NCBI GenBank assembly: GCA_034430795.1
Contig: DAOUDJ010000209.1
Location: 3,762-67,761, forward strand
DNA: 64,000 nucleotides
Reading direction: 5' to 3'
DNA from: Anaerolineales bacterium
GTDB taxonomy: Bacteria > Chloroflexota > Anaerolineae > Anaerolineales > E44-bin32
Shown here in pieces: positions 5,758 to 49,204 of the stretch. The translations under genes were made by a program, and so were the position numbers. Under the pieces are notes generated by a model, which was given only the letters and a program-made list of their open reading frames with translations, did not search any database and was not told the origin of the DNA. Position 1 is the stretch's first letter; each line of letters opens with the position of its first letter.

Positions 5758-8628
5758 ATGAGTCCGCGCTCACACTTCTCCCTCAAAATGCCTTCGCAGT
5801 ATAGCATAGGGCACTATCAGGGATGCTATAATGCCCCCCTCAATCCTATGCAATCACTAATCTCCTTCGACCTCGAAACCACTGGTCTGGATCCCGCTCG
5901 CGATGCCATTATTGAAATCGGTGCGGTTCGATTTCGCGGCGACCGGGTCGAAGATGAATGGTCAGAACTCATCTTCCCCGGCCGCCCGATTCCCCCCGCC
6001 ATCGTTCAACTCACCGGCATCACGGACGCCATGCTCTCAAGTGCACCGCGGATCACTAATGTTCTCGCCGATCTGGATGCTTTCGTCGGCGACCTGCCCA
6101 TCCTGGGGCATAACATCCAATTCGACCTGGCATTCATGAAGCGCCGCGGCTTATTCGAACTAAATCCCTACCTAGACACTTTCGATCTGGCTTCTGTCAT
6201 GCTTCCCTCGGCTGGACGGTATGGTCTCCAAGCATTGGCTCAGTCACTCGGCGTGCCCGTGCGAGCTGCCCACCGGGCGATAGATGACGCCCACACAACT
6301 CGCCAGGTTTTTCTTCAGCTATACGAGGAAGCGCGGGCAATCCCATTCCCCATCCTGGAGGAGATTACGCGCTACGGAGAGGAGATTGAATGGGGAGCCG
6401 GCTGGGTATTCGATCTGGCCTACGGCGAGAGACGTGAGAAAGAAGAACCAACGAAGGGTGAATTCCCGACCCTGTTCCCAAAAGCCCTCATTCCGGAAGA
6501 AAAGCTAACCCCATCGGCTGAGCCTGGACCACTTGATGTGGAGGAGATCGCCTCCATTTTCGAGCCGGGTGGACAGATGGCAAAAGCATTCCCAGAATAC
6601 GAAGATCGTCCACAGCAGATCAGCATGGTGAGAGCGGTGACGGAAGCGCTCTCCGAGAGCAAGCACTTAATGGTCGAGGCGGGAACGGGGACGGGGAAAT
6701 CGATGGCTTACCTGGCGCCTGCCTTCGCATGGGCAGCACAAAATGGGCGGCCAGTGGTCATCTCAACCAATACGCTCAACCTCCAGGATCAATTGATCCA
6801 CAAAGACATCCCGGACCTGAACCAGGCTCTGGATACGGAATACCGTGCGGCTGTGCTTAAAGGACGCGGCAATTACCTCTGCCCCCGCCGCTTCAACACC
6901 TTACGAAGCCTGGGACCGAGATCACCGGAAGAGACACGTGTCCTCACCAAACTCCTTCTCTGGCTGACCAACGGCGGCAGCGGCGATCGCAGCGAGCTCA
7001 ACCTGCCTCGGGAGGAGTCTTTAGCCTGGTCGAGATTGTCTGCAGATAACGAGGACTGCTCAATCGAGAATTGCGTTCAACATACGGGTGGGACTTGCCC
7101 CTATTTCCGCTCTCGACTTGCAGCCGAGCACGCCCATATCATTATCGTTAATCACGCTCTCTTGTTAGCTGACATCGCCATCGGGAACCGCGTGATCCCC
7201 GAGTATCAATACCTTATCATCGATGAGGCGCATCACCTAGAGTCAGCGACGACCAACGGTCTGAGCTATAGCGTAACGGAGATGGAGGTTCAACGCGTGC
7301 TGCGCGACCTGGGAAGCCATACAAGGGGGCTCCTGCGCCAGATTTTAGAAGTCGCCCGCGCCTCGCTCCCTCCCGAGGGTGCCACACAAGTCGATCGTAT
7401 CATCAACGCAGTCTCCGACCGTACCGTCGAATGCATCGAGATGTCCAAGACACTTTTCGGACACATCTCTGAAGTACTTGAGAATCAGCGTGAAGGGCGG
7501 GAGCTGGGATTCTACGGGCAGCAGATGCGCATCGTACCCGCCACGAGAACACTCCCGGATTGGGAAAAGGTGGAGATCTCCTGGGAAAATCTGCGCGGCC
7601 CGCTCGCCAAGATCGTTGAGAAACTCGTAGAAATGGCAGATGATCTTGAAAGTCTGGCAGAGACGGGCGTCGATGCTGCGGAAAACCTGTCGGTCGCTGC
7701 ACGCATCGCCCGGCGCAGCCTCGGTGAGGTCTACAAACACCTCGAACGGATGATCTTCGAGCCGGACCCGGCGGATATATATTGGGCTAATGTCCGGCCC
7801 CCTGGCGAGCGCCTTTCGCTGCACGCTGCACCACTCGAAGTCGGACCGCTCGTGGAGCGCTATCTTTGGCACGAAAAGGAAGCCGTAATTATGACCTCGG
7901 CTACGCTCACAACAGCCGGCGACTTCGACTATATCCGTCGGCGGTTGTACGCGCAGGATGCGGACGAGCTGGCGTTGGGATCACCCTTTGATCACGAAAC
8001 ATCCACGTTGCTCTATCTCGTGAACGACATACCGGAACCCGTCCAACGACAAGCCTATCAGCGCGCTCTCGAAAGCGGATTGATCCGCCTGGTGAAGGAG
8101 ATCGGAGGAAAAACAATGGTCCTCTTCACCTCGAATGCCCAACTCCAGACAACCGCCCGCGCCTTGGCTGAACCTTTGACAAGTGAGGGCATTCATCTCT
8201 TCGAGCAGAGCCGGGGAGCCTCCCGCCACGCCTTGTTGGAGAGCTTCCGGTCGACAGAGCAAGCCGTCCTGCTCGGCACACGCTCTTTTTGGGAAGGGGT
8301 TGACATCCCCGGACCGGCGCTCTCAGTGCTTGGGATCGTGCGCCTGCCCTTTGCAGTCCCCAACGATCCAATAATCGCCGCTCGTGCAGACACGTATGAA
8401 TCTCCCTTTGATGAATATATGCTTCCCGAGGCCATCCTGCGTTTCCGGCAGGGGTTTGGCCGTTTGATCCGCACTCGCTCAGATCGGGGCGTCGTAGTGG
8501 TCTTCGATCGCAGGATCATCTCGAAATTCTACGGCCGCATGTTCGTCGATTCACTCCCCCGCTGCAGCGTCAAGCTCGGGAGCCTGGCAGAACTTCCGGA
8601 AGCAGCTTCTCGCTGGCTTGGTCTGTAA
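5758..8628 (+). CDS. dinG: DinG-family (XPD-like) ATP-dependent helicase with N-terminal DnaQ-like 3'-5' exonuclease domain
   Basis: 956 aa. Exonuclease motifs ISFDLETTGLD, GHNIQFDLAF and HRAIDDA. Helicase motifs EAGTGTGKS and DEAHH. Four Cys at 6880..7097. The true start may be the ATG at 5848 (MQSLISFDLE). Confidence 0.88.
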   Translation: MSPRSHFSLKMPSQYSIGHYQGCYNAPLNPMQSLISFDLETTGLDPARDAIIEIGAVRFRGDRVEDEWSELIFPGRPIPPAIVQLTGITDAMLSSAPRITNVLADLDAFVGDLPILGHNIQFDLAFMKRRGLFELNPYLDTFDLASVMLPSAGRYGLQALAQSLGVPVRAAHRAIDDAHTTRQVFLQLYEEARAIPFPILEEITRYGEEIEWGAGWVFDLAYGERREKEEPTKGEFPTLFPKALIPEEKLTPSAEPGPLDVEEIASIFEPGGQMAKAFPEYEDRPQQISMVRAVTEALSESKHLMVEAGTGTGKSMAYLAPAFAWAAQNGRPVVISTNTLNLQDQLIHKDIPDLNQALDTEYRAAVLKGRGNYLCPRRFNTLRSLGPRSPEETRVLTKLLLWLTNGGSGDRSELNLPREESLAWSRLSADNEDCSIENCVQHTGGTCPYFRSRLAAEHAHIIIVNHALLLADIAIGNRVIPEYQYLIIDEAHHLESATTNGLSYSVTEMEVQRVLRDLGSHTRGLLRQILEVARASLPPEGATQVDRIINAVSDRTVECIEMSKTLFGHISEVLENQREGRELGFYGQQMRIVPATRTLPDWEKVEISWENLRGPLAKIVEKLVEMADDLESLAETGVDAAENLSVAARIARRSLGEVYKHLERMIFEPDPADIYWANVRPPGERLSLHAAPLEVGPLVERYLWHEKEAVIMTSATLTTAGDFDYIRRRLYAQDADELALGSPFDHETSTLLYLVNDIPEPVQRQAYQRALESGLIRLVKEIGGKTMVLFTSNAQLQTTARALAEPLTSEGIHLFEQSRGASRHALLESFRSTEQAVLLGTRSFWEGVDIPGPALSVLGIVRLPFAVPNDPIIAARADTYESPFDEYMLPEAILRFRQGFGRLIRTRSDRGVVVVFDRRIISKFYGRMFVDSLPRCSVKLGSLAELPEAASRWLGL

Positions 8629-8707
8629 CCACACATTGACGCTCCTCGCCGCGTCCGACTATAATCAGCACACCAAATCTCAACACATAAGTCGAAGGAT
8701 AAAAAAC

Positions 8708-9265
8708 GTGATTGATGTCAACGAACTGCGAAATGGCGTAACCTTTGAGTTGGATGGAAACCTTTATAGAGTAATCGAGTACACCCATCATAAACCCGGC
8801 CGGGGCAAGGCCACGATCCGCACAAAAGTGCGCAACTTGCGCAGTGGCGCCGTGCTTGAGAAATCATTCACATCAAGTGATCGGGTACAGGACGTTCGGC
8901 TCGACTACCGCACCGCCCAATTCCTGTATTTCGACGGAGACTTATACCATTTCATGGACGTGGTTTCGTTCGAGCAGCCTGCACTTGACAGCGATGCGCT
9001 TGGAGATGCAGTGAATTACCTTACTGAAAACCTGGAGGTGAAGCTCACCTTCTACGATCAAGAACCGATCGAAATCGAACTCCCAACGGCGGTGGATCTC
9101 GAAGTCAAAGAGGCGGAGATGGCGGTGAAAGGCGACACTGCCACAGGCGCAAATAAAACCGTTACGGTGGAGACTGGCCTTAAAGTCCAGGTCCCTCTTT
9201 TCGTCGAGATGGGCAACAAAATTCGTGTCGATACCCGCACAGGCGAATACCTAACCCGGGTTTAG
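8708..9265 (+). CDS. efp: translation elongation factor P
   Basis: The ORF-track frame is trimmed to the in-frame GTG at 8708, giving 185 aa (VIDVNELRNGVTFELDGNLYRVIEYTHHKPGRGKATIRTKVRNLRSG...). The 30 upstream codons show no EF-P similarity. Confidence 0.93.
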   Translation: MIDVNELRNGVTFELDGNLYRVIEYTHHKPGRGKATIRTKVRNLRSGAVLEKSFTSSDRVQDVRLDYRTAQFLYFDGDLYHFMDVVSFEQPALDSDALGDAVNYLTENLEVKLTFYDQEPIEIELPTAVDLEVKEAEMAVKGDTATGANKTVTVETGLKVQVPLFVEMGNKIRVDTRTGEYLTRV

Positions 9266-14764: not shown

Positions 14765-15637
14765 GTGAATAGACTAGCCACTTTCTCAATCGTTGCTTAC
14801 GATGCAACTATGGATGCTTTGGGAATCGCCGTCGCCTCAAAATTCCCGGCCGTCGGTGCAGTCGTACCTTGGGCTCAAGTAGGTGCAGGTGCTGTCGCAA
14901 CTCAATCGCATGCCAACACAACCTTCGGCCCAAGAGGCTTGGAACTCATGACGAAGGGCCGCTCTGCCCAGAATGTTTTGAAGGATTTACTTGCGAATGA
15001 CGAAGAGCGAGAGCTTCGACAGGTAGGGATCGTCGATGCACAAGGTCGCACAGCCACATTCACAGGCGCAGATTGCTTCGAATGGGCCGGTGGAAAAACC
15101 GGTGCGAATTACTGCGTTCAGGGAAATATACTCACCGGTCCAGAAGTGATCGATCAGATGGCTTCCGCGTTTGAGGACTCAAAGAAAGACCTTCCCGAAC
15201 GCTTGCTCAAAGCGTTGCTTGCCGCTGATCAGGCAGGGGGTGACCGCCGCGGGAAACAGAGCGCGGCGATTTACGTCGTAAAACCCGAGGGTGGATATGG
15301 GGGCTTCAACGACCGCTGGATCGATTATCGTGTCGACGATCACGAAGATCCAGTCCCGCGGCTGATGGAGATCCTCGGACTTCATAGCCTGTACTTCGGG
15401 AAGAGCCCAGCTGAAGAGGAGCTTGATATCGACGGCGCAGTCTGCGAAGCCCTACAGCAAATAATGCGGGATCTGGGGTATGAGATTGATGAAATCACAG
15501 GGAACTATGATCACAAAACCCAGACCGCGCTCCGCCGGTTCATCGGCAATGAGAACTTCGAAGAGCGCACGGCGTTTGAAAAGGGGCGCATTGATCAACC
15601 GGTATATGAATACCTGCTAAAGAAATTCCGCGGCTGA
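14765..15637 (+). CDS. DUF1028-family (Ntn-hydrolase-like) protein with C-terminal peptidoglycan-binding-like repeat
   Basis: 290 aa with a GTG start. The N-terminus (TFSIVAYDATMDALGIAVASKFPAVGAVVPWA) is typical of DUF1028. The C-terminus (LGYEIDEITGNYDHKTQTALRRFIGNENF) resembles PG_binding_1. Confidence 0.7.
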   Translation: MNRLATFSIVAYDATMDALGIAVASKFPAVGAVVPWAQVGAGAVATQSHANTTFGPRGLELMTKGRSAQNVLKDLLANDEERELRQVGIVDAQGRTATFTGADCFEWAGGKTGANYCVQGNILTGPEVIDQMASAFEDSKKDLPERLLKALLAADQAGGDRRGKQSAAIYVVKPEGGYGGFNDRWIDYRVDDHEDPVPRLMEILGLHSLYFGKSPAEEELDIDGAVCEALQQIMRDLGYEIDEITGNYDHKTQTALRRFIGNENFEERTAFEKGRIDQPVYEYLLKKFRG

Positions 15638-40559: not shown

Positions 40560-41330
40560 TTAGGCATCCTCTTCCTTCTCGGATTCAGCTTCAGCGTTCG
40601 CTTCTTCCTCGTCTACCTCAGCCTCAGGTTCTTCTTTGGCTTCAGGCTCAGTATCAGTTTCAGTTTCCGTTTCGGCTTCAGATTCAGCAGCCTCTTCGGT
40701 CTCCTTGGCTTCTTCTTCACCATCGGCAGCTTCAGCCTCGGTTTCCTCTGCAACCTCAGGAGCTTCCTTTTCCTCCGCTGGAGCTTCTTCAGGCTCCGCT
40801 TCAGCCTCGGATGCTTCCTTTTCCTCCGCCGGAGCTTCTTCAGGCTCCGCTTCAGCCTCGGTCTCTGCTGCAGCCTCGGGTGCTTCCTCTTCCTCCGCTG
40901 GAGCTTCTTCGGCTTCAGGCGTTTCTTCTACAGCTTCTTCCGCCTCTTCCTTCTTGCGCGCCTTTGCTTTCTTCTTGCGCTTCCCGATAAGATCATCACG
41001 ACGTGTCCGCGGATCGATCTCTGGGAGAGCCTTTTCAGCTTCCTCTAACAGCTTCTCGAGCGATTCTCCTTGCTTAAAGCGTTCCCAACGCTCCCAGGTT
41101 CCAAGAGCGTTAAGTGCTTGACGGACGGCGTCGCTCGGCTGTGCTCCATGCTGTAGCCAGTGGAATAAACGCGCTTCATCCACCACTACGGTGGATGGTT
41201 CCGTGCGAGGATTATAGTGGCCGAGGATCTCCAAGAAGCGCCCATCTCGTGGGCTTTCCTTGTCCGCGGCGACGATTCGGTAGCTCGGTTGGTTACGGGC
41301 TCCCACTCGACGTAATCGAATTCGAACCAT
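40560..41330 (-). CDS. rpsP: 30S ribosomal protein S16 with ~160-aa acidic low-complexity C-terminal extension
   Basis: The N-terminal ~85 aa (MVRIRLRRVGARNQPSYRIVAADKESPRDGRFLEILGHYNP) is canonical S16. The tail is E/A/P-rich and includes a 51-bp tandem DNA repeat at 40762..40861. Confidence 0.9.
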   Translation of the reverse strand: MVRIRLRRVGARNQPSYRIVAADKESPRDGRFLEILGHYNPRTEPSTVVVDEARLFHWLQHGAQPSDAVRQALNALGTWERWERFKQGESLEKLLEEAEKALPEIDPRTRRDDLIGKRKKKAKARKKEEAEEAVEETPEAEEAPAEEEEAPEAAAETEAEAEPEEAPAEEKEASEAEAEPEEAPAEEKEAPEVAEETEAEAADGEEEAKETEEAAESEAETETETDTEPEAKEEPEAEVDEEEANAEAESEKEEDA

Positions 41331-42878: not shown

Positions 42879-45614
42879 TCAAGGGATACCTTCGCTGTGC
42901 ATGAGATCGAGGATATTTCGACCAATACGCTCAGCTACAATCGAATTCTGGCCCTCGATCACGACGACCACAACATAGCGGCTACCGTTTATGAAGAGCC
43001 CACCTTGATACCAGCCAAGCATCTCGCCGACCTCACCCGTAAGGGCTACTGAGCGCTGGCCAAAGGGTTGACCTGCTGCAGCACTGAGCACCTCGATGAC
43101 CCGCTTTCTAACGTTTTGATCCAACACCCTGTTGCCTGACCCCGCAGGGGGGATTTCATTCCAATCCCCTCCCTGGGGTCGGTAGGCATCCACGACTCGG
43201 AGTGCTGGTAAACCCGGGTCTGCGATCAATCCCGCAAATGCCCGGGCGAGCTGCAGAGGGCTTATTGTTAGATCCCCCTGCCCAACCGCCGCCAACCTCA
43301 ACGCTCCTTCACTGGCTAGGTCACCTGGACCTGACGGATCTATGGTTGGCAAGCGAACTTCCGGACGGTCAAAGAAACCAAAGGCCTCGAGCATCTGGTT
43401 GAACTCCTCAGCTCCTAACTCCATGCCGAGCGTGACGAAAGGCGCAGGACACCCATTCAAGAAGGCCTTTGTGAAGTCTGCCTTGCCATCATGGAGAAGC
43501 TTTACCAAACATTCAAGCGACTGACCGTTTACTTCGATAGAGGTTTCTAAGTTCAGAACCAAATCGCCAGGTTCAGCGATGCCCATTTGAATGCTCCATG
43601 CAAGAATATACGGGCTTATCACCATTCCGGGTTGATATCTTCCCTGTGTGACTCGGTTTAATAGTGGAGATGCAGGATCAGTCGTTATGTCTTGCCACTC
43701 TTGATCAAACCGATTTGGATCGTATGAAGGCGATGAAGCCATGGCCAGGATGTCGCCGGACTGTGCTTCCAGCAGGACAAGTCCACCTTGGTACCCACTG
43801 AGTTGATCCGCGGCAGCTTTCTGCAAGTGGTGGTCTAGTGTCAACCGAAGATCGCTGCCGGGTGGAGGATGTCCACTCGTGAGCTGTGACCACCCTATCG
43901 AAATCGGATTATCACCCTCGCTTCCCCTCAGAAGCCCATCCATGACGCTTTCCAAGCCGGATAAACCATACGTAAAGGAGTTATATCCTATGACCGTCGC
44001 GCTTTCAGGGTGTGGATAAAACCGTTGATATGAACCCGGATTGCCCGTTGATTTAGCAAGTAGCTCCCCGGCTTCATCCATGATTAACCCTCGTTTCGTA
44101 TACAGATCTTCCACCGCCCTTCGAGGGTTGTCAGTCCTGCTAAAAAGAATAGGCGCTCGATAAACCGTCCACCAACCTAAAGTTACTGCCAGCGCTCCCC
44201 ATGCGATGAGACTTCCATAGTGCAGCGCCGCAAGTGGGCGTGTGAAGATTTCATTCCACTCGGTTTTCCCTGAGAGCAGAAGCAGAATGCCCAGAAGGAT
44301 GAAGCTCGTGACAAGCGATGATCCGCCGTAGGATACAAACGGCAATGTCACCCCAACCAGCGGAAGCAGACGGATATTCCCACCAATAATCAGCACTGCT
44401 TGCAGCCCTAGCGAGATGCTGATGCCTGCGGAGAGCAAGGCAGAGAAAGGATCCCGCGAATGAAAAGCGACGCGTAATCCCCTGCTAACAAGAACGGCAA
44501 AAAGGGCGATGACGGCTAATCCTCCAAGTAAACCGAACTCCTCAGTAATTGCAGTGAAGATGAAATCGGTATGAACCGCGGGAACAAATCCTGGTGAACC
44601 CAAGCCAAACCCGCGCCCGACTACTCCGCCGGAGGCTAAAGCGATGAGAGACTGAACCAGCTGATACGACCCTCCGATCGAATCCGGCCACGGGTTAATC
44701 CATGCCGTAATCCGCTGACCAACGACATCGAAAAGGAAATAACCCATTGTGCCAGCCAGCATCCCAAAAATCGAAGCAAAGACGAGGATTACCCATCGTC
44801 CTGTCGCTACATAAAGTAGAAGGGCAAGGAGCGCCAGGAAGAGCATTCCCATCCCCAAATCCCGCTGAACGAGCAATAGAGCTACCGAGAGCGACCAGAT
44901 GACAATCAATGGAAGCAGTGTGGAAAACGAGGGGAGTCCCTCCTCTCGATGGAATGTGAAACGCAGTTTGTCACTCAGAAAGGACGCAAGAAAGGCAACT
45001 AATAGCAACCGGAGAGGTTCAGATGGCTGGAGATAAACCCCACAGCATCCGAGCCAGAGTCTGGGCTCACCTCCCGTAGGATGGGTGCCGAAAACCAATG
45101 TCAATATCATCAGCACCAAACCCACGGTCATCCACACATACCGGTAGCGCCGCAGCCAAGATAGATTCCGATCCCCATGAAGAACCGCATAGAGGACGGT
45201 GATACCAACGATGAACCAAGCCGTCTGCCGAAACCCGAAGCTTGGAAATAGGCGCCAAATAACCAGCAAACCCCAGCCAGTGAGCAGAAAAGCTGTTGGC
45301 AGCAAGATGGGATCGCGCTCGGGATTCGTGCGATGGAGCGCCTGGCGAGTGAGCCAAAAACCAAAAACCCAAACAGGAAGAACGAGAAAGTGCCCCCAGC
45401 GATCTCCAAAAGCTGACCATTGGTTTAGGCGTGCTGCAGATGCGAAAGACAATGCAAAGGCAGTGAAGAGCAAAAAGAGGAACGCGAGGCTTCCCAGAAA
45501 TAGCTCGCGCTCCTCGCTGGTTCGTTCTTGATCAACGAAGATATCGATCCACAAGGAGAGAGTACCTCCTACGCGCCGCTTCTGAGATGAGGTCAGGTTT
45601 AGTAGCAATTGCAT
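42879..45614 (-). CDS. fusion of SEDS glycosyltransferase (RodA/FtsW family) with a class-B penicillin-binding-protein-like domain
   Basis: 911 aa. The N-terminal ~470 aa is polytopic, with SEDS motifs (QLVQSLIALASGGVVGRGFGLG, PAVHTDFIFTAITEEFG). The C-terminal ~430 aa carries PBP2/PbpA framework motifs (KRGLIMDEAGELLA, GLSGLESVMDGLL, ILAMASSPSYDPNRF, VGQGDLTISPLQLA). The start is uncertain. The ATG at 45614 overlaps mtnP by 83 nt. An alternative TTG at 45554 follows a GGAGG. Confidence 0.85.
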   Translation of the reverse strand: MQLLLNLTSSQKRRVGGTLSLWIDIFVDQERTSEERELFLGSLAFLFLLFTAFALSFASAARLNQWSAFGDRWGHFLVLPVWVFGFWLTRQALHRTNPERDPILLPTAFLLTGWGLLVIWRLFPSFGFRQTAWFIVGITVLYAVLHGDRNLSWLRRYRYVWMTVGLVLMILTLVFGTHPTGGEPRLWLGCCGVYLQPSEPLRLLLVAFLASFLSDKLRFTFHREEGLPSFSTLLPLIVIWSLSVALLLVQRDLGMGMLFLALLALLLYVATGRWVILVFASIFGMLAGTMGYFLFDVVGQRITAWINPWPDSIGGSYQLVQSLIALASGGVVGRGFGLGSPGFVPAVHTDFIFTAITEEFGLLGGLAVIALFAVLVSRGLRVAFHSRDPFSALLSAGISISLGLQAVLIIGGNIRLLPLVGVTLPFVSYGGSSLVTSFILLGILLLLSGKTEWNEIFTRPLAALHYGSLIAWGALAVTLGWWTVYRAPILFSRTDNPRRAVEDLYTKRGLIMDEAGELLAKSTGNPGSYQRFYPHPESATVIGYNSFTYGLSGLESVMDGLLRGSEGDNPISIGWSQLTSGHPPPGSDLRLTLDHHLQKAAADQLSGYQGGLVLLEAQSGDILAMASSPSYDPNRFDQEWQDITTDPASPLLNRVTQGRYQPGMVISPYILAWSIQMGIAEPGDLVLNLETSIEVNGQSLECLVKLLHDGKADFTKAFLNGCPAPFVTLGMELGAEEFNQMLEAFGFFDRPEVRLPTIDPSGPGDLASEGALRLAAVGQGDLTISPLQLARAFAGLIADPGLPALRVVDAYRPQGGDWNEIPPAGSGNRVLDQNVRKRVIEVLSAAAGQPFGQRSVALTGEVGEMLGWYQGGLFINGSRYVVVVVIEGQNSIVAERIGRNILDLMHSEGIP

Positions 45615-46398
45615 CTTCTAATGCGGCGTGACATTCACAACCCACCTTTTCGGGGAGTTCTGCAACAAGGCGAGCGATTACTTCCTGGGCGAGGTTGGTA
45701 TTCTTCTTAACCGTTTGGAAGACCATCTCCACCGTGACTGGCTCCTCGGCTTGATGCCAGACGTCGTAATCTGTGACATGCGCCATTACCGCGTAGCACA
45801 TCTCAGCTTCTCTGGCGAGAAAAGCTTCAGGAGAAGTTGTCATCCCAATAATAGATATTCCCCAAGCACGGTAGATATTGGATTCTGCACGGGTCGAGAA
45901 ACGCGGTCCTTCGATCGTGATGTAGCATCCTCCACGATGGACATTCCCGCTTACTTCCTCGGTGCTGGAAGCCAAGAGCTCGGAGAGGTCTGGGCAAAAC
46001 GGGTCGGCGACACTTATATGTGTCACCAATCCGCTCTCGAAGAACGAGCGAGACCTGGAAACTGTGCGGTCGAAGATCTGGTCAGGGATGACAATCTCGC
46101 CTGGCACATAGTCCTCACGCAGCGACCCGCAGGCACTGACCGCAAGAACGCGCTTGACACCGAACATTTTCATCGCATATATATTTGCCCGGTAATTTAC
46201 GTCAGTCGGTGGATAGATATGCCCGATCCCGTGGCGTGCAAGAAAAGCGACTTTTCGACTATTTAACATACCCATAGCAATCGGTGAACTAGGTTCACCA
46301 AAGGGTGTCGAGACCTCATGCATTTCTACATCAGTCAGATCATGCATGTCGTACAAGCCCGACCCACCAATTACGCCGAGAACAGGTTTTTCGTCCAT
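45532..46398 (-). CDS. mtnP: S-methyl-5'-thioadenosine phosphorylase
   Basis: 288 aa. Contains GVIGGSGLY, FLARHG, ACGSLRE and IGMTTSPEAFLAREAEMCYA. Confidence 0.9.
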   Translation of the reverse strand: MDEKPVLGVIGGSGLYDMHDLTDVEMHEVSTPFGEPSSPIAMGMLNSRKVAFLARHGIGHIYPPTDVNYRANIYAMKMFGVKRVLAVSACGSLREDYVPGEIVIPDQIFDRTVSRSRSFFESGLVTHISVADPFCPDLSELLASSTEEVSGNVHRGGCYITIEGPRFSTRAESNIYRAWGISIIGMTTSPEAFLAREAEMCYAVMAHVTDYDVWHQAEEPVTVEMVFQTVKKNTNLAQEVIARLVAELPEKVGCECHAALEDAIATKPDLISEAARRRYSLLVDRYLR

Positions 46399-46545: not shown

Positions 46546-46986
46546 TTATTCCAAGTCATCTTCAACAACGGGTGCTTCCATTCGGAATTCAACTCGACCG
46601 AAGGAAATCTGGTCGCCATAGGTGACGACCAACGGTCCTTCGAGCGGTATTCCATTGACTGCCGTTCCGTTCCGCGAGCCTGAATCCTCCAACCACCACT
46701 GCCCATCCTGAAAGGATAACCGCGCATGATGCGCGGAAGCCATATCATCCTCAAGCACCAATGTATTATCGGCTGCTCGACCAATTCTATTATTTGCAAT
46801 GAGAGAGTGTCTCACCTCAACATCCGACCCATCAGCTAAGACAAGAACTGCGGGAGGGCTATGTACTTCTGATGCTCGATGGGATTGTATCTCCTTCCCA
46901 AGAAAAAGAAGGAGCATGCCCAGAAAAGCGTAGAGGATCAGGCCCATGACAACCCTGATCATAAGAAGTACTAATCCTGGAGTCAT
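46546..46986 (-). CDS. membrane-anchored FHA-domain protein (FhaB/FipA-like)
   Basis: 146 aa. N-terminal TM helix (LVLLMIRVVMGLILYAFLGMLLLFL) followed by an FHA core (IGRAADNTLVLEDDMASAHHARLSF..WWLEDSGSRNGTAVNG). The start overlaps the upstream stop. Confidence 0.8.
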   Translation of the reverse strand: MTPGLVLLMIRVVMGLILYAFLGMLLLFLGKEIQSHRASEVHSPPAVLVLADGSDVEVRHSLIANNRIGRAADNTLVLEDDMASAHHARLSFQDGQWWLEDSGSRNGTAVNGIPLEGPLVVTYGDQISFGRVEFRMEAPVVEDDLE

Positions 46987-47849
46987 TCCTGAGGTTTTTT
47001 CTTCTTGGGGATCACTCGGGTTCGTTGGTCACCGGAAGGGCGCGGGGGGAATGGAGGCGAATAAGCTGGCGTTTCATCGGGTGGTCCTCCAGGGTCCTCT
47101 CCGTATACAAGCCGGTTTCCCGCCAGGTTGATTACATCTCCCGATTGTAGGACATGATGCTTAATTGCCCGCCCATTGATCACAGTGCCAGCGGAGGATC
47201 CTAGATCAAATGCTTCAAACCGCCCTTCTCTTGCTCGAATTTGAGAATGAGTCCTCGATATTCGTGGGTCATCGATGATAAGTTGATTATCCAGACGGCG
47301 GCCGATGTTCACGACGGGTCGATCCAAGGGAAAATGGCGATCCCCATTTACAATCAAATACGCACCCTTGGGAAGTACACCCGGATTGGTCTTGGGTTCA
47401 GTCTGCATAGCCTGTGTGAACTCCAGCGGGCTAGTGCTGTGCCATGCGACAACCCTCACCTCTTTCGGCCTTAATGTAGGATCGACTGCGATTGTCACAA
47501 TCGGTTTTCGAAAGACCAGATAATCACAGTCCCGTGCAACTTGAAGAAGCCCTTGCGAGAAGCTATCCTGCAGGTGTGGCGCTTGATCTAGAATCGCCTG
47601 CGCATCATCGGGATTCAGCGTGAGCGCGTATTGATCAGGGACGAAGGGTTTGCCATCTTCCGTCCTGCGGATACCCTCATCCATCGCGCGCGAGAGTTGG
47701 GCAGCGACCAGCGCAGGCGAAAACTGAACCCCGATCAATTTACCCAGGGCTCCCTCGACGAATCTCTCAATTTGTGACTCGATGTGGTCGATTGGATTAG
47801 CCACGCTTGCTGTGTCTCTTAACCGTAAAAATAGCCATTCTGCGTGCAA
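46983..47849 (-). CDS. FhaA-like protein (DUF3662-like N-domain + C-terminal FHA), paralog 2
   Basis: 288 aa. FHA core IGRRLDNQLIIDDPRISRTHSQI..FDLGSSAGTVINGR and a Pro-rich tail. An alternative GTG start lies at 47804. Confidence 0.8.
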   Translation of the reverse strand: MHAEWLFLRLRDTASVANPIDHIESQIERFVEGALGKLIGVQFSPALVAAQLSRAMDEGIRRTEDGKPFVPDQYALTLNPDDAQAILDQAPHLQDSFSQGLLQVARDCDYLVFRKPIVTIAVDPTLRPKEVRVVAWHSTSPLEFTQAMQTEPKTNPGVLPKGAYLIVNGDRHFPLDRPVVNIGRRLDNQLIIDDPRISRTHSQIRAREGRFEAFDLGSSAGTVINGRAIKHHVLQSGDVINLAGNRLVYGEDPGGPPDETPAYSPPFPPRPSGDQRTRVIPKKKKPQE

Positions 47850-47874: not shown

Positions 47875-48729
47875 TTAATTATTCTCGCCAGGGGAATCCG
47901 AATCAAGCTTTCTCAATTGCTTTGTGATCCTAAAATCCATGGGGGTTATGCGATCATCTGCGGGCTCTGGCGCAGGTCCTGGCTTGTAAGGTGGTGTTAC
48001 CTCTGGCGGACCACCCGTATCTTCTCCATAGATTAATTCGACAGTCGCTACATTAATCAAGTCCCCCGGTTGGAGCGTATGTTCCTTAACCTTTCGTCCA
48101 TTCACAAAGGTCCCGGCTGTAGAATTGAGGTCATGGATGACGTATTTACCGCGGTTGGCTAGCAGCTGCAAATGTTGTCTTGAGACTCGAGGATCGTCGA
48201 TTACCAGATCATTATCCAAACGACGACCAATTTTGACCAGTGGGGTTGATAGCTGAAAATGCCGTTTGCCTTCGACAACGAGAAAAGCGCCAGCTGGGGG
48301 TCTATCGGTATCGTACTCCTCGATCGGCGTGAGCTCGCCCTGTATACCCAGCGGATTGCTGCTGTGCCAACCGATAATGCGAACCCCATCTTGAGGGAGG
48401 GTTGGGTCAGTGGCAATCGTGAAATGAACATCTCTTGCAAAAAGAAAACCGGCCTGTTGCAGAGCTTGCCTAAACTCCCGGGATATTTCCATTTGAAGAT
48501 CGTCCGACAATTGCCCGATTTGTTTCATGGCATCTGGGTGAACGCTTAACGTGAACTGATCAGGGGCAAACTCTCGCCCATTAGAATCAATACGCGCAAC
48601 CCCAACCGATTCTTTTGCAAATTGGTGGGCAAAGTTTTCCAGAGGGAGATCGCCAAGATCGAGATACCCCAAGGATTTCTTAAGAGCTTCCTCTATCGCT
48701 CCTGCAATCTGTAATAATCGATCGTCCAT
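47875..48729 (-). CDS. FhaA-like protein (DUF3662-like N-domain + C-terminal FHA), paralog 1
   Basis: The track ORF is trimmed to the ATG at 48729 (MDDRLLQIAGAIEEALKK), giving 284 aa. FHA core IGRRLDNDLVIDDPRVSRQHLQL..HDLNSTAGTFVNGR. The 81 upstream codons look non-coding (S/R/C-rich). Confidence 0.8.
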   Translation of the reverse strand: MDDRLLQIAGAIEEALKKSLGYLDLGDLPLENFAHQFAKESVGVARIDSNGREFAPDQFTLSVHPDAMKQIGQLSDDLQMEISREFRQALQQAGFLFARDVHFTIATDPTLPQDGVRIIGWHSSNPLGIQGELTPIEEYDTDRPPAGAFLVVEGKRHFQLSTPLVKIGRRLDNDLVIDDPRVSRQHLQLLANRGKYVIHDLNSTAGTFVNGRKVKEHTLQPGDLINVATVELIYGEDTGGPPEVTPPYKPGPAPEPADDRITPMDFRITKQLRKLDSDSPGENN

Positions 48730-48796
48730 TCTTATGATTATACATAGCCGCCGCTCGTCGTTAAAAGGGCAATTCGTACTATATACTGGAGATGTG

Positions 48797-49204
48797 ATGC
48801 AACCCGGATACGAAGAGATCGAACATACTGCCGATTGGGCATTACGCGTTCGCGGCCAAAATCTCACCGATTTGTTCCGCAACGCCGCCTTTGGCATGCT
48901 TTCATTGCTAGACATTGAACCTGTCCCGGGAAATGCAGAAAGCCGCTTTTTCGAACTGGTAGCGGAAGACACCGAGACGTTGCTGGTTTCCTGGCTGGAA
49001 GAGCTGCTCTACCCGCTCGATGTTGAAAATGCTGCAGTTGTCGATTTCGAGGTTGATGTGTTAGAAAAAACTCGATTAAAGGCAACGATCGAGTTAAAGA
49101 AAATCGCAACGATCAAGAAAGAAATTAAAGCCGTCACTTTTAACGAACTGGATATTCGTGCCATAGAATCCGGCTACGAGACGATTATCGTCTTTGATGT
49201 TTAG
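48797..49204 (+). CDS. archease (RtcB activator)
   Basis: Trimmed to the ATG at 48797 (MQPGYEEIEHTADWALRVRG), giving 135 aa. Lies immediately upstream of rtcB. Confidence 0.85.
   Translation: MQPGYEEIEHTADWALRVRGQNLTDLFRNAAFGMLSLLDIEPVPGNAESRFFELVAEDTETLLVSWLEELLYPLDVENAAVVDFEVDVLEKTRLKATIELKKIATIKKEIKAVTFNELDIRAIESGYETIIVFDV

Follow-up and report, generated by a model that had tools for sequence, protein, structure and literature searches.

Pairs of a SEDS glycan polymerase and a penicillin-binding protein of class B (bPBP) are viewed as obligate units of a polymerase and a cross-linker, assembled as 1:1 complexes, and as prime targets of the beta-lactams. The described system closest to the one treated here is the RodA-PbpA pair of Mycobacterium tuberculosis (Rv0017c-Rv0016c), which we take to be encoded in the operon fhaA-fhaB-pstP-rodA-pbpA-pknA-pknB. 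To our knowledge, the non-catalytic role of bPBPs as polymerase activators is known only from structures and from engineered point mutants. Here, we focus on a gene on the minus strand of a 64,000-nucleotide stretch of DNA from an Anaerolineales bacterium (Chloroflexota; assembly GCA_034430795.1, contig DAOUDJ010000209.1, positions 3,762 to 67,761; hereafter the window), in which a SEDS polymerase and a PbpA-type bPBP are fused into one polypeptide. Judged by its sequence, the transpeptidase (TP) domain of this fusion is catalytically dead, as its S-x-x-K, S-x-N, and K-T-G motifs have all been lost. We argue below that it is probably a natural pseudo-transpeptidase, kept as the structural or allosteric partner of an active SEDS polymerase whose strands are cross-linked in trans.

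Laboratory work supplies part of the background for such a division of labor. bPBPs allosterically activate their SEDS partners (PMC12713402, PMC12516126), and the inactive variants PBP2b(S309A) of B. subtilis and SpoVD(S311A) of C. difficile (both together with PBP3) remain necessary for SEDS-dependent synthesis and suffice to support it while another enzyme makes the cross-links (PMC12713402). A catalogue from 2025 lists 117 natural SEDS-bPBP fusions as putative “bifunctional class B” synthases and describes a fusion of 931 amino acids (aa) from Senegalimassilia faecalis, consisting of FtsW/RodA, PBPA_dimer, and transpeptidase parts (PMC12516126). In the open-access full texts that were searched, none describes a bPBP that lacks its motifs by nature and is partnered with a SEDS protein, and a SEDS-bPBP unit with its bPBP as a conserved pseudoenzyme is, within that literature, apparently undescribed.

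The gene is an open reading frame (ORF) of 911 codons when counted from its ATG (42879..45614), and the region 42879..44180, which an earlier note on this DNA had read as a catalytically dead bPBP fused to a SEDS half, makes up the last 433 of them. The register of the catalytic positions was taken from a phmmer comparison with all PDB sequences, where M. tuberculosis PbpA (3UN7) is the top match, from a family profile of 49 members, and from AlphaFold models. The alignment of this profile with PbpA is full-length (E=4.6e-75) and yields the SxxK and SxN registers once more. The positions concerned, together with a cysteine discussed further on, are the following:

43614..43625, minus strand: former S-x-x-K site, M664-V665-I666-S667, aligned to S-T-F-K of PbpA
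43446..43454, minus strand: former S-x-N site, G721-C722-P723, aligned to S-C-N of PbpA (phmmer, family profile)
43050..43058, minus strand: equivalent of K-T-G, Q853-R854-S855 (profile alignment, beta3 strand)
43035..43043, minus strand: L858-T859-G860 at the end of beta3, opposite E-H-G of PbpA and probably not the equivalent of K-T-G
43509..43511, minus strand: C702, a beta-hairpin residue presumed to be linked to C722 by a disulfide, invariant in 121 of 121 homologues and in 107 fusions

At the first of these sites, “YPPGSTFK” of PbpA stands opposite “YQPGMVIS” in both phmmer and the family profile, and a helix begins at residue 663 in the AlphaFold models, as expected for the serine of S-x-x-K. 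The G-C-P of the second site is located in the loop preceding helix 723-744. Both replacements had been proposed in the earlier note and are borne out, and its codon coordinates (43625..43614, 43454..43446, and 43043..43035) are exact. The third site needs a correction, as the note had seen the remnant of K-T-G in L-T-G. The loss itself stands, since neither register holds a lysine, but the register does not: the “KTGTA” of M. tuberculosis PbpA and, independently, that of E. lenta 4MNR lie opposite Q853-R854-S855-V-A857 in the family profile, and the predicted beta3 strand (851-859) is consistent with the Q-R-S register. L858-T859-G860 was thus rejected in favor of the position five residues upstream. 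Among the 121 homologues, no lysine is found in column 853 (Y, F, L, Q, V, or M) or in column 858 (L, I, or V), and G860 is present in 119 of them.

What has taken the place of the catalytic residues is not constant. Column 664 holds M, T, L, G, S, or P in the 121 sequences (with Thr in 41), and column 667 holds A, S, G, or T and never K; the replaced positions vary in this way, and none has become fixed as a substitute nucleophile or base. A T-I-L-K at the SxxK site is seen in one fragmentary representative (P0261). Residues 721-723 read G/A-C-P, with C722 in all 121 sequences and P723 in 115, and [G/A/R]-C-P across the wider family. Nor does a canonical motif lie elsewhere in the domain, a possibility that the earlier note had raised against its own claim: the query's entire PBP half (aa 479-911, with seven lysines in all) is free of S-x-x-K and of K-[ST]-G, and its sole S-x-N, at 826, belongs to an unrelated loop.

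The motif loss is a lineage-wide trait and not the result of chance or sequencing error, because the substitutions recur in 120 homologues, 150 cluster representatives, 66 genome loci, and 120 stand-alone relatives; orthologs thus share them, a point that the earlier note had put forward for checking. None of the 385 relatives retrieved has the canonical motif set. They are of two kinds, namely fusions of about 890 aa and stand-alone forms of about 450 aa (roughly 440-470) that adjoin a SEDS gene. The 120 closest database proteins are all fusions of the former size from Anaerolineales or Chloroflexota metagenome-assembled genomes (MAGs), with 45-99% identity and the same substitutions. When the PBP half was searched with HMMER against 1.84 billion cluster representatives (clustered at 50% identity), 510 clusters were found at E<=1e-30, and the best 150 of these 510 representatives, fusions as well as stand-alone proteins, are all without the motifs. 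The same substitutions are present in all 66 genome loci (one genome per species, nearly all labelled Anaerolineae or Chloroflexota), a set that was found with a seven-sequence alignment and search patterns at the junction of transmembrane helix and pedestal and is therefore biased to this family, leaving active relatives unsampled. Promineifilaceae, Ardenticatenaceae, Ca. Leptofilum, and similar taxa are the source of the 120 stand-alone relatives, in which the sites read Y-Q-P-G-L-x-L-Q-P-F and R-C-P and no KTG is present. Such a stand-alone pseudo-PBP directly follows the SEDS gene, with an overlap of 4 nucleotides at locus L067 and as an adjacent ORF at L043 and L048. Fused or unfused, the tie of the pseudo-PBP to SEDS in these genomes is an obligate one.

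One subclade (L052 and L055-L060; e.g., L059 at 6666..9089) goes further, as its fusion is about 80 aa shorter. A deletion of about 65 residues has removed the beta-hairpin, both cysteines, and the loop that once held SxN; some of the segment preceding G-Q-G is missing as well, and the pedestal, the C-terminal sheet, and the remaining head are retained. Among the members are a MAG that consists of a single contig of 4.9 Mb and another that bears the label Herpetosiphon sp. Together with the replaced motifs and the variable sites, this deletion upholds, at the level of the sequence, the earlier description of the module as a dead bPBP.

A few loci stand out for other reasons. L002 (JAIWHF010000014.1, “Methanosarcinales archaeon”, 82% identical to the query) and L058 (JADJSY010000077.1, “Lewinellaceae bacterium”) show the full Anaerolineae synteny and are probably mis-binned. 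In two long-read MAGs, L046 (7077..9303) and L061 (6581..9307), the fusion gene is divided into two or three overlapping ORFs, which are either indel errors or real pseudogenes.

Around the former active site, the anatomy of a class B PBP is present, i.e., a transmembrane anchor, a pedestal, and the penicilloyl-serine-transferase fold (from Pfam, the PbpA profile, and Foldseek), and the module is clearly a descendant of that family. The gene and its parts are laid out as follows:

42879..45614, minus strand: whole gene, with SEDS polymerase, 11th transmembrane helix, PbpA-type pedestal, and pseudo-transpeptidase (ORF, Pfam, AlphaFold)
44271..45239, minus strand: SEDS (FtsW/RodA/SpoVE) glycosyltransferase core, aa 126-448 (PF01098, FTSW_RODA_SPOVE, E=1e-71, 242 bits)
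44565..44567, minus strand: D350 of H-T-D-F-I-F (aa 348-353), presumed catalytic Asp, opposite D275 of P. aeruginosa FtsW
44094..44270, minus strand: cytoplasmic linker and extra bPBP-type transmembrane helix, aa 449-507 (model helix 458-485)
43788..44093, minus strand: PbpA-type pedestal, aa 508-609 (PF21922, PBP_dimer_2, at aa 508-587, E=7.5e-11)
42900..43787, minus strand: TP fold without catalytic residues, aa 610-905 (PF00905, PbpA profile, AlphaFold, Foldseek)

Glycosyltransferase (PF01098) and transpeptidase (PF00905) domains on one chain are what defines a natural SEDS-bPBP fusion, and both are found here, the latter as a partial match (aa 610-822, profile positions 1-194 of 299). From the SEDS C-terminus, the chain continues through the cytoplasmic linker and one extra transmembrane helix (458-485) into the pedestal; because this topology is the one that a 1:1 SEDS-bPBP complex needs, the order of parts corresponds to that of such a complex. 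Next to the membrane, G-W-W and R-x-D-N-P-R-R are found, of which W481, W482, R493, D495, N496, and R498 are at least 95% conserved. AlphaFold2 predicts the PBP half with a mean local confidence score (pLDDT) of 93 and a global one (pTM) of 0.92; for the full-length model these are 87.9 and 0.85, and the SEDS half appears as a helical bundle. In Foldseek, the PBP half matches M. tuberculosis PbpA (3UN7) over its full length with a TM-score of 0.81. With its PF21922 pedestal and with PbpA as top match by both sequence and fold, the module falls in the PbpA subfamily. The start codon is ambiguous: a TTG at 45554..45552 (codon 21) would yield a protein of 891 aa and is the start used in public annotations of the homologues, and the ATG at 45614 is kept in the closest relatives; residues 1-29 are predicted to be disordered.

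Within the former SxN motif, the structural residue is kept and the two catalytic ones are lost, as far as the alignment tells. C722, the middle residue, is invariant like C702, and the partner Cys of PbpA aligns within a few residues of the latter. The PBPa of M. tuberculosis has a disulfide that ties the middle residue of its SxN to the beta-hairpin (PMC9974482), and C702 and C722 are presumed to form the same PbpA-type structural pair.

In the PDB, the SEDS half finds P. aeruginosa FtsW (8BH1, E=3e-31) and E. coli RodA (8TJ3_B, E=1e-28). That this half is intact and keeps its HTDFIF, as the earlier note had observed, is confirmed by D350, which is invariant in 107 fusions, and the same Asp is kept by every SEDS-bearing protein among the 150 representatives. 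The Q-P-S-E motif is retained as well. We take D350 to be the equivalent of D262 in E. coli RodA, an Asp that is essential for polymerase activity. The polymerase site looks intact, and of the two activities implied in the term “bifunctional” it would be the only one left with its site.

The PBP half is not decaying. Among nine close relatives, the ratio of nonsynonymous to synonymous substitution (dN/dS, Nei-Gojobori method) is 0.08 for the SEDS core, 0.16 for the pedestal, and 0.21 for the TP-like domain, with 0.25 in its C-terminal third and a range of 0.19-0.25 over the head. A gradient in the same order (SEDS > pedestal > TP) is seen in 106 sequences less than 60% identical to the query, where columns conserved to at least 90% make up 108 of 323 (33%) in the SEDS core, 25 of 102 (25%) in the pedestal, 30 of 213 (14%) in the N-terminal part of the TP domain, and 5 of 83 (6%) in its C-terminal part. 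The best-conserved residues of the head are S-x-P, N-R, Y-x-P-G, G-Q-G, P-L-Q, W868, and E887, i.e., the generic framework of active bPBPs, to which a family-specific W818 is added; no new catalytic constellation is apparent among them.

The fusion is embedded in a gene order that is near-universal across the 66 loci. On the coding strand, it reads FhaA-like, FhaA-like, FhaB-like, MTAP-like phosphorylase, fusion, ffh, rpsP, and rimM, and the genes upstream of the fusion lie at the following positions:

47875..48972, minus strand: FhaA-like protein (FhaA_N and FHA)
46983..47849, minus strand: FhaA-like protein, tandem paralogue (FhaA_N and FHA)
46546..46986, minus strand: small FhaB-like FHA protein (FHA match)
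45532..46398, minus strand: MTAP-like phosphorylase (PF01048)

The 3' end of the MTAP-like gene overlaps the start of the fusion by 23 nucleotides (from the TTG) or 83 nucleotides (from the ATG). It lies directly upstream of the unit, fused or unfused, in almost all of the 66 loci and likewise in L067, a fixed place in a cell-wall operon for a nucleoside phosphorylase. No gene for a Ser/Thr kinase or PP2C phosphatase was seen in the scanned parts of the window. Elsewhere in the window, a DUF1028 protein (14765..15637, plus strand) carries at its C-terminus a PG_binding_2 domain, the only other peptidoglycan-related one that was found. Downstream of the fusion, rpsP (40560..41330, minus strand) encodes an S16 protein of 256 aa, composed of a normal core and a repetitive acidic tail of about 170 aa rich in Glu, Ala, and Pro; the ORF at 40636..41121 on the plus strand is a low-complexity shadow of this tail.

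How could such a protein work? We consider it likely, though short of certain, that a pseudo-transpeptidase serves here as partner of the SEDS polymerase. The fusion would then be the Anaerolineae counterpart of the RodA-PbpA pair, drawn together into one polypeptide. Its N-terminal SEDS module may be an active lipid II glycan polymerase, as the invariant Asp and the strong purifying selection suggest. The C-terminal module is a PbpA-type bPBP that has its fold, pedestal, anchor, and presumed structural disulfide intact; its sequence has lost the nucleophilic Ser, the Lys that would act as general base, and the residues of SxN and KTG. Following the established PBP mechanism, a domain in which these residues are missing should not form an acyl-enzyme, and hence D,D-transpeptidation and covalent beta-lactam binding should be impossible. 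The module may be retained for the bPBP transmembrane helix and pedestal, which would provide stability and allosteric activation to the SEDS enzyme, and the TP-shaped head probably still does non-catalytic work, as a spacer or as a module for docking or binding. Cross-links between the strands would come from enzymes acting in trans (class A PBPs, a further bPBP, or L,D-transpeptidases), which becomes necessary if the wall is cross-linked at all. This state appears to be ancestral to a large Anaerolineae-wide family, in which SEDS and pseudo-PBP are adjacent or fused within an FhaA-FhaA-FhaB-MTAP-SEDS/PBP operon.

Retention on behalf of the SEDS partner matches both the conservation gradient and the experiments with Ser-to-Ala bPBPs. 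The proposal of the earlier note that the PBP module is an allosteric or pedestal partner is thus consistent with the data, but its “only” is probably too narrow, given a dN/dS of about 0.2 in the head. Its further suggestion, that cross-links would then be made elsewhere or in another way, is a plausible one. Three points weigh against the partner role as we have drawn it. The TP-like head is probably more than a passive extension of the pedestal and would serve a separate purpose outside catalysis, because it is under purifying selection, has kept its fold and cysteine pair, and persists across the class. Furthermore, searches with hidden Markov models on all ORFs of the window and of the 66 loci, along with Pfam scans of about 45 window ORFs, turned up neither a second PBP nor an L,D-transpeptidase, be it in the window or, in the 66 loci, up to 8 kb to either side of the gene. 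Finally, its NCBIfam scores place the fusion neither among the orthologues of FtsW nor among those of RodA, as they stay below the equivalog cut-offs (FtsW TIGR02614, 247 vs 337.5; RodA TIGR02210, 214 vs 336.7); the same holds for PBP2/MrdA (TIGR03423, 156 vs 455).

The first of these points can be pushed further, to the view that the head has been neo-functionalised and that a specific binding or regulatory role (recognition of the nascent strand or stem peptide, docking of a transpeptidase, or wall sensing) explains its conservation, rather than activation through the pedestal. Purifying selection on the head (dN/dS 0.19-0.25) and the retention of framework motifs lining the groove (Y-Q-P-G and G-Q-G-x-L-T-x-S-P-L-Q, with W818) speak in its favor. 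So does the fact that the head has not been lost, even though pedestal-only proteins exist elsewhere (PMC12516126), and for B. subtilis and C. difficile it has been suggested that bPBPs contact one another (PMC12516126, PMC12713402). Yet conservation is lowest in the head, above all near beta3 (6% of columns at 90% or more), and one subclade tolerates a deletion of about 65 residues in the region of the former active site. We therefore regard neo-functionalisation as a rather unlikely, if reasonable, account of the conservation.

Far less probable is cryptic catalysis, in which non-canonical residues, e.g., a Cys or Thr nucleophile, would still cross-link or cleave. One could point to the invariant C722 in the former active-site loop, the Thr at 664 in 41 of the 121 homologues, and the T-I-L-K of P0261, but C722 has an invariant partner in C702, as in the known structural disulfide of PBPa, and position 664, where M, T, L, G, S, and P are all accepted, does not look selected as a nucleophile. 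In addition, the fusions have no fixed Lys or His at 667 or 853, the conserved residues of the head are generic framework, and the deletion subclade does without C702 and C722 altogether. C722 was rejected as a Cys nucleophile in view of its partner, the PBPa precedent, and this deletion. It is harder still to believe in a decaying or non-functional paralogue, or in an artefact of assembly, frameshift, or misalignment. The split gene in L046 and L061 would fit such a view, whereas intact ORFs in hundreds of independent assemblies, dN/dS values of 0.08-0.25, the near-universal synteny, the confident structure prediction, and the full-length alignment with PbpA (E=4.6e-75) all run counter to it. 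Of the explanations considered, the pseudo-transpeptidase as SEDS partner thus remains the one we prefer.

If this partner role is true, the family, with at least 510 clusters at 50% identity, would demonstrate that only the non-catalytic role has survived in evolution throughout a class that is abundant yet little studied, and would offer a ready-made system to find out which parts of a bPBP activate the SEDS enzyme. It would also yield a prediction on cross-linking of the Anaerolineae wall and on the beta-lactam insensitivity of its SEDS machine. A bolder extension, which we offer as speculation with the odds clearly against it, is that the FHA-linked SEDS machine of Anaerolineae gave up coupled D,D-transpeptidation for good. 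Its strands would be cross-linked only by another enzyme class (e.g., L,D-transpeptidases or class A PBPs brought in by the dead head) or would enter a non-canonically cross-linked wall or sheath, and the core synthase would be intrinsically blind to beta-lactams. The family would then also be a separation-of-function system provided by nature, in which bPBPs can be studied for scaffolding and allostery. On the practical side, annotations such as “bifunctional” SEDS-bPBP or “penicillin-binding transpeptidase domain-containing protein” may be unsafe at face value.

Coming back to the described systems, RodA-PbpA of M. tuberculosis gives the best match of the PBP half in both sequence (profile E=4.6e-75) and fold (TM-score 0.81; PbpA structures 3UN7 and 3LO7). 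PbpA has the same short PF21922 pedestal and the Cys-Cys link between SxN loop and beta-hairpin that is presumed for the fusion, and FhaA-like and FhaB-like genes are found upstream of the SEDS-PBP unit here, too. The differences are equally clear. PbpA has its S-T-F-K, S-C-N, and K-T-G, and beta-lactams acylate it (3UPN, 3UPO, 3UPP), whereas all three motifs are gone in Anaerolineae. Moreover, the counterparts of the two mycobacterial genes are fused in the window, no phosphatase or kinase is seen in the cluster, and an MTAP-like gene has been inserted.

The SEDS-PbpA proteins of Coriobacteriia (E. lenta 4MNR; A. parvulum 4JBF, 4N1X, and others) are a close match as well, with E=5.8e-72 and a TM-score of at most 0.84 (normalised to the target). 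Their TP domains, crystallised under the name “peptidoglycan glycosyltransferase”, have intact motifs (G-K-T-G-T-A in 4MNR) and form acyl-enzymes with beta-lactams according to the PDB titles. The catalogued natural fusions share the single chain of SEDS glycosyltransferase, pedestal, and TPase fold, with the glycosyltransferase N-terminal as in Rhodococcus jostii; loss of the TP motifs is not reported for them and Anaerolineae do not appear in the main text (PMC12516126), whereas the fusion described here would be a polymerase only. RodA-PBP2 of T. thermophilus (6PL5) and of E. coli (8TJ3) resembles it in the SEDS half, but consists of separate chains with an active TP domain and a larger PF03717 pedestal. 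A parallel is also found in the engineered Ser-to-Ala bPBPs. These are laboratory point mutants of enzymes that are otherwise canonical, whereas in Anaerolineae all three motifs have been removed naturally and across the class.

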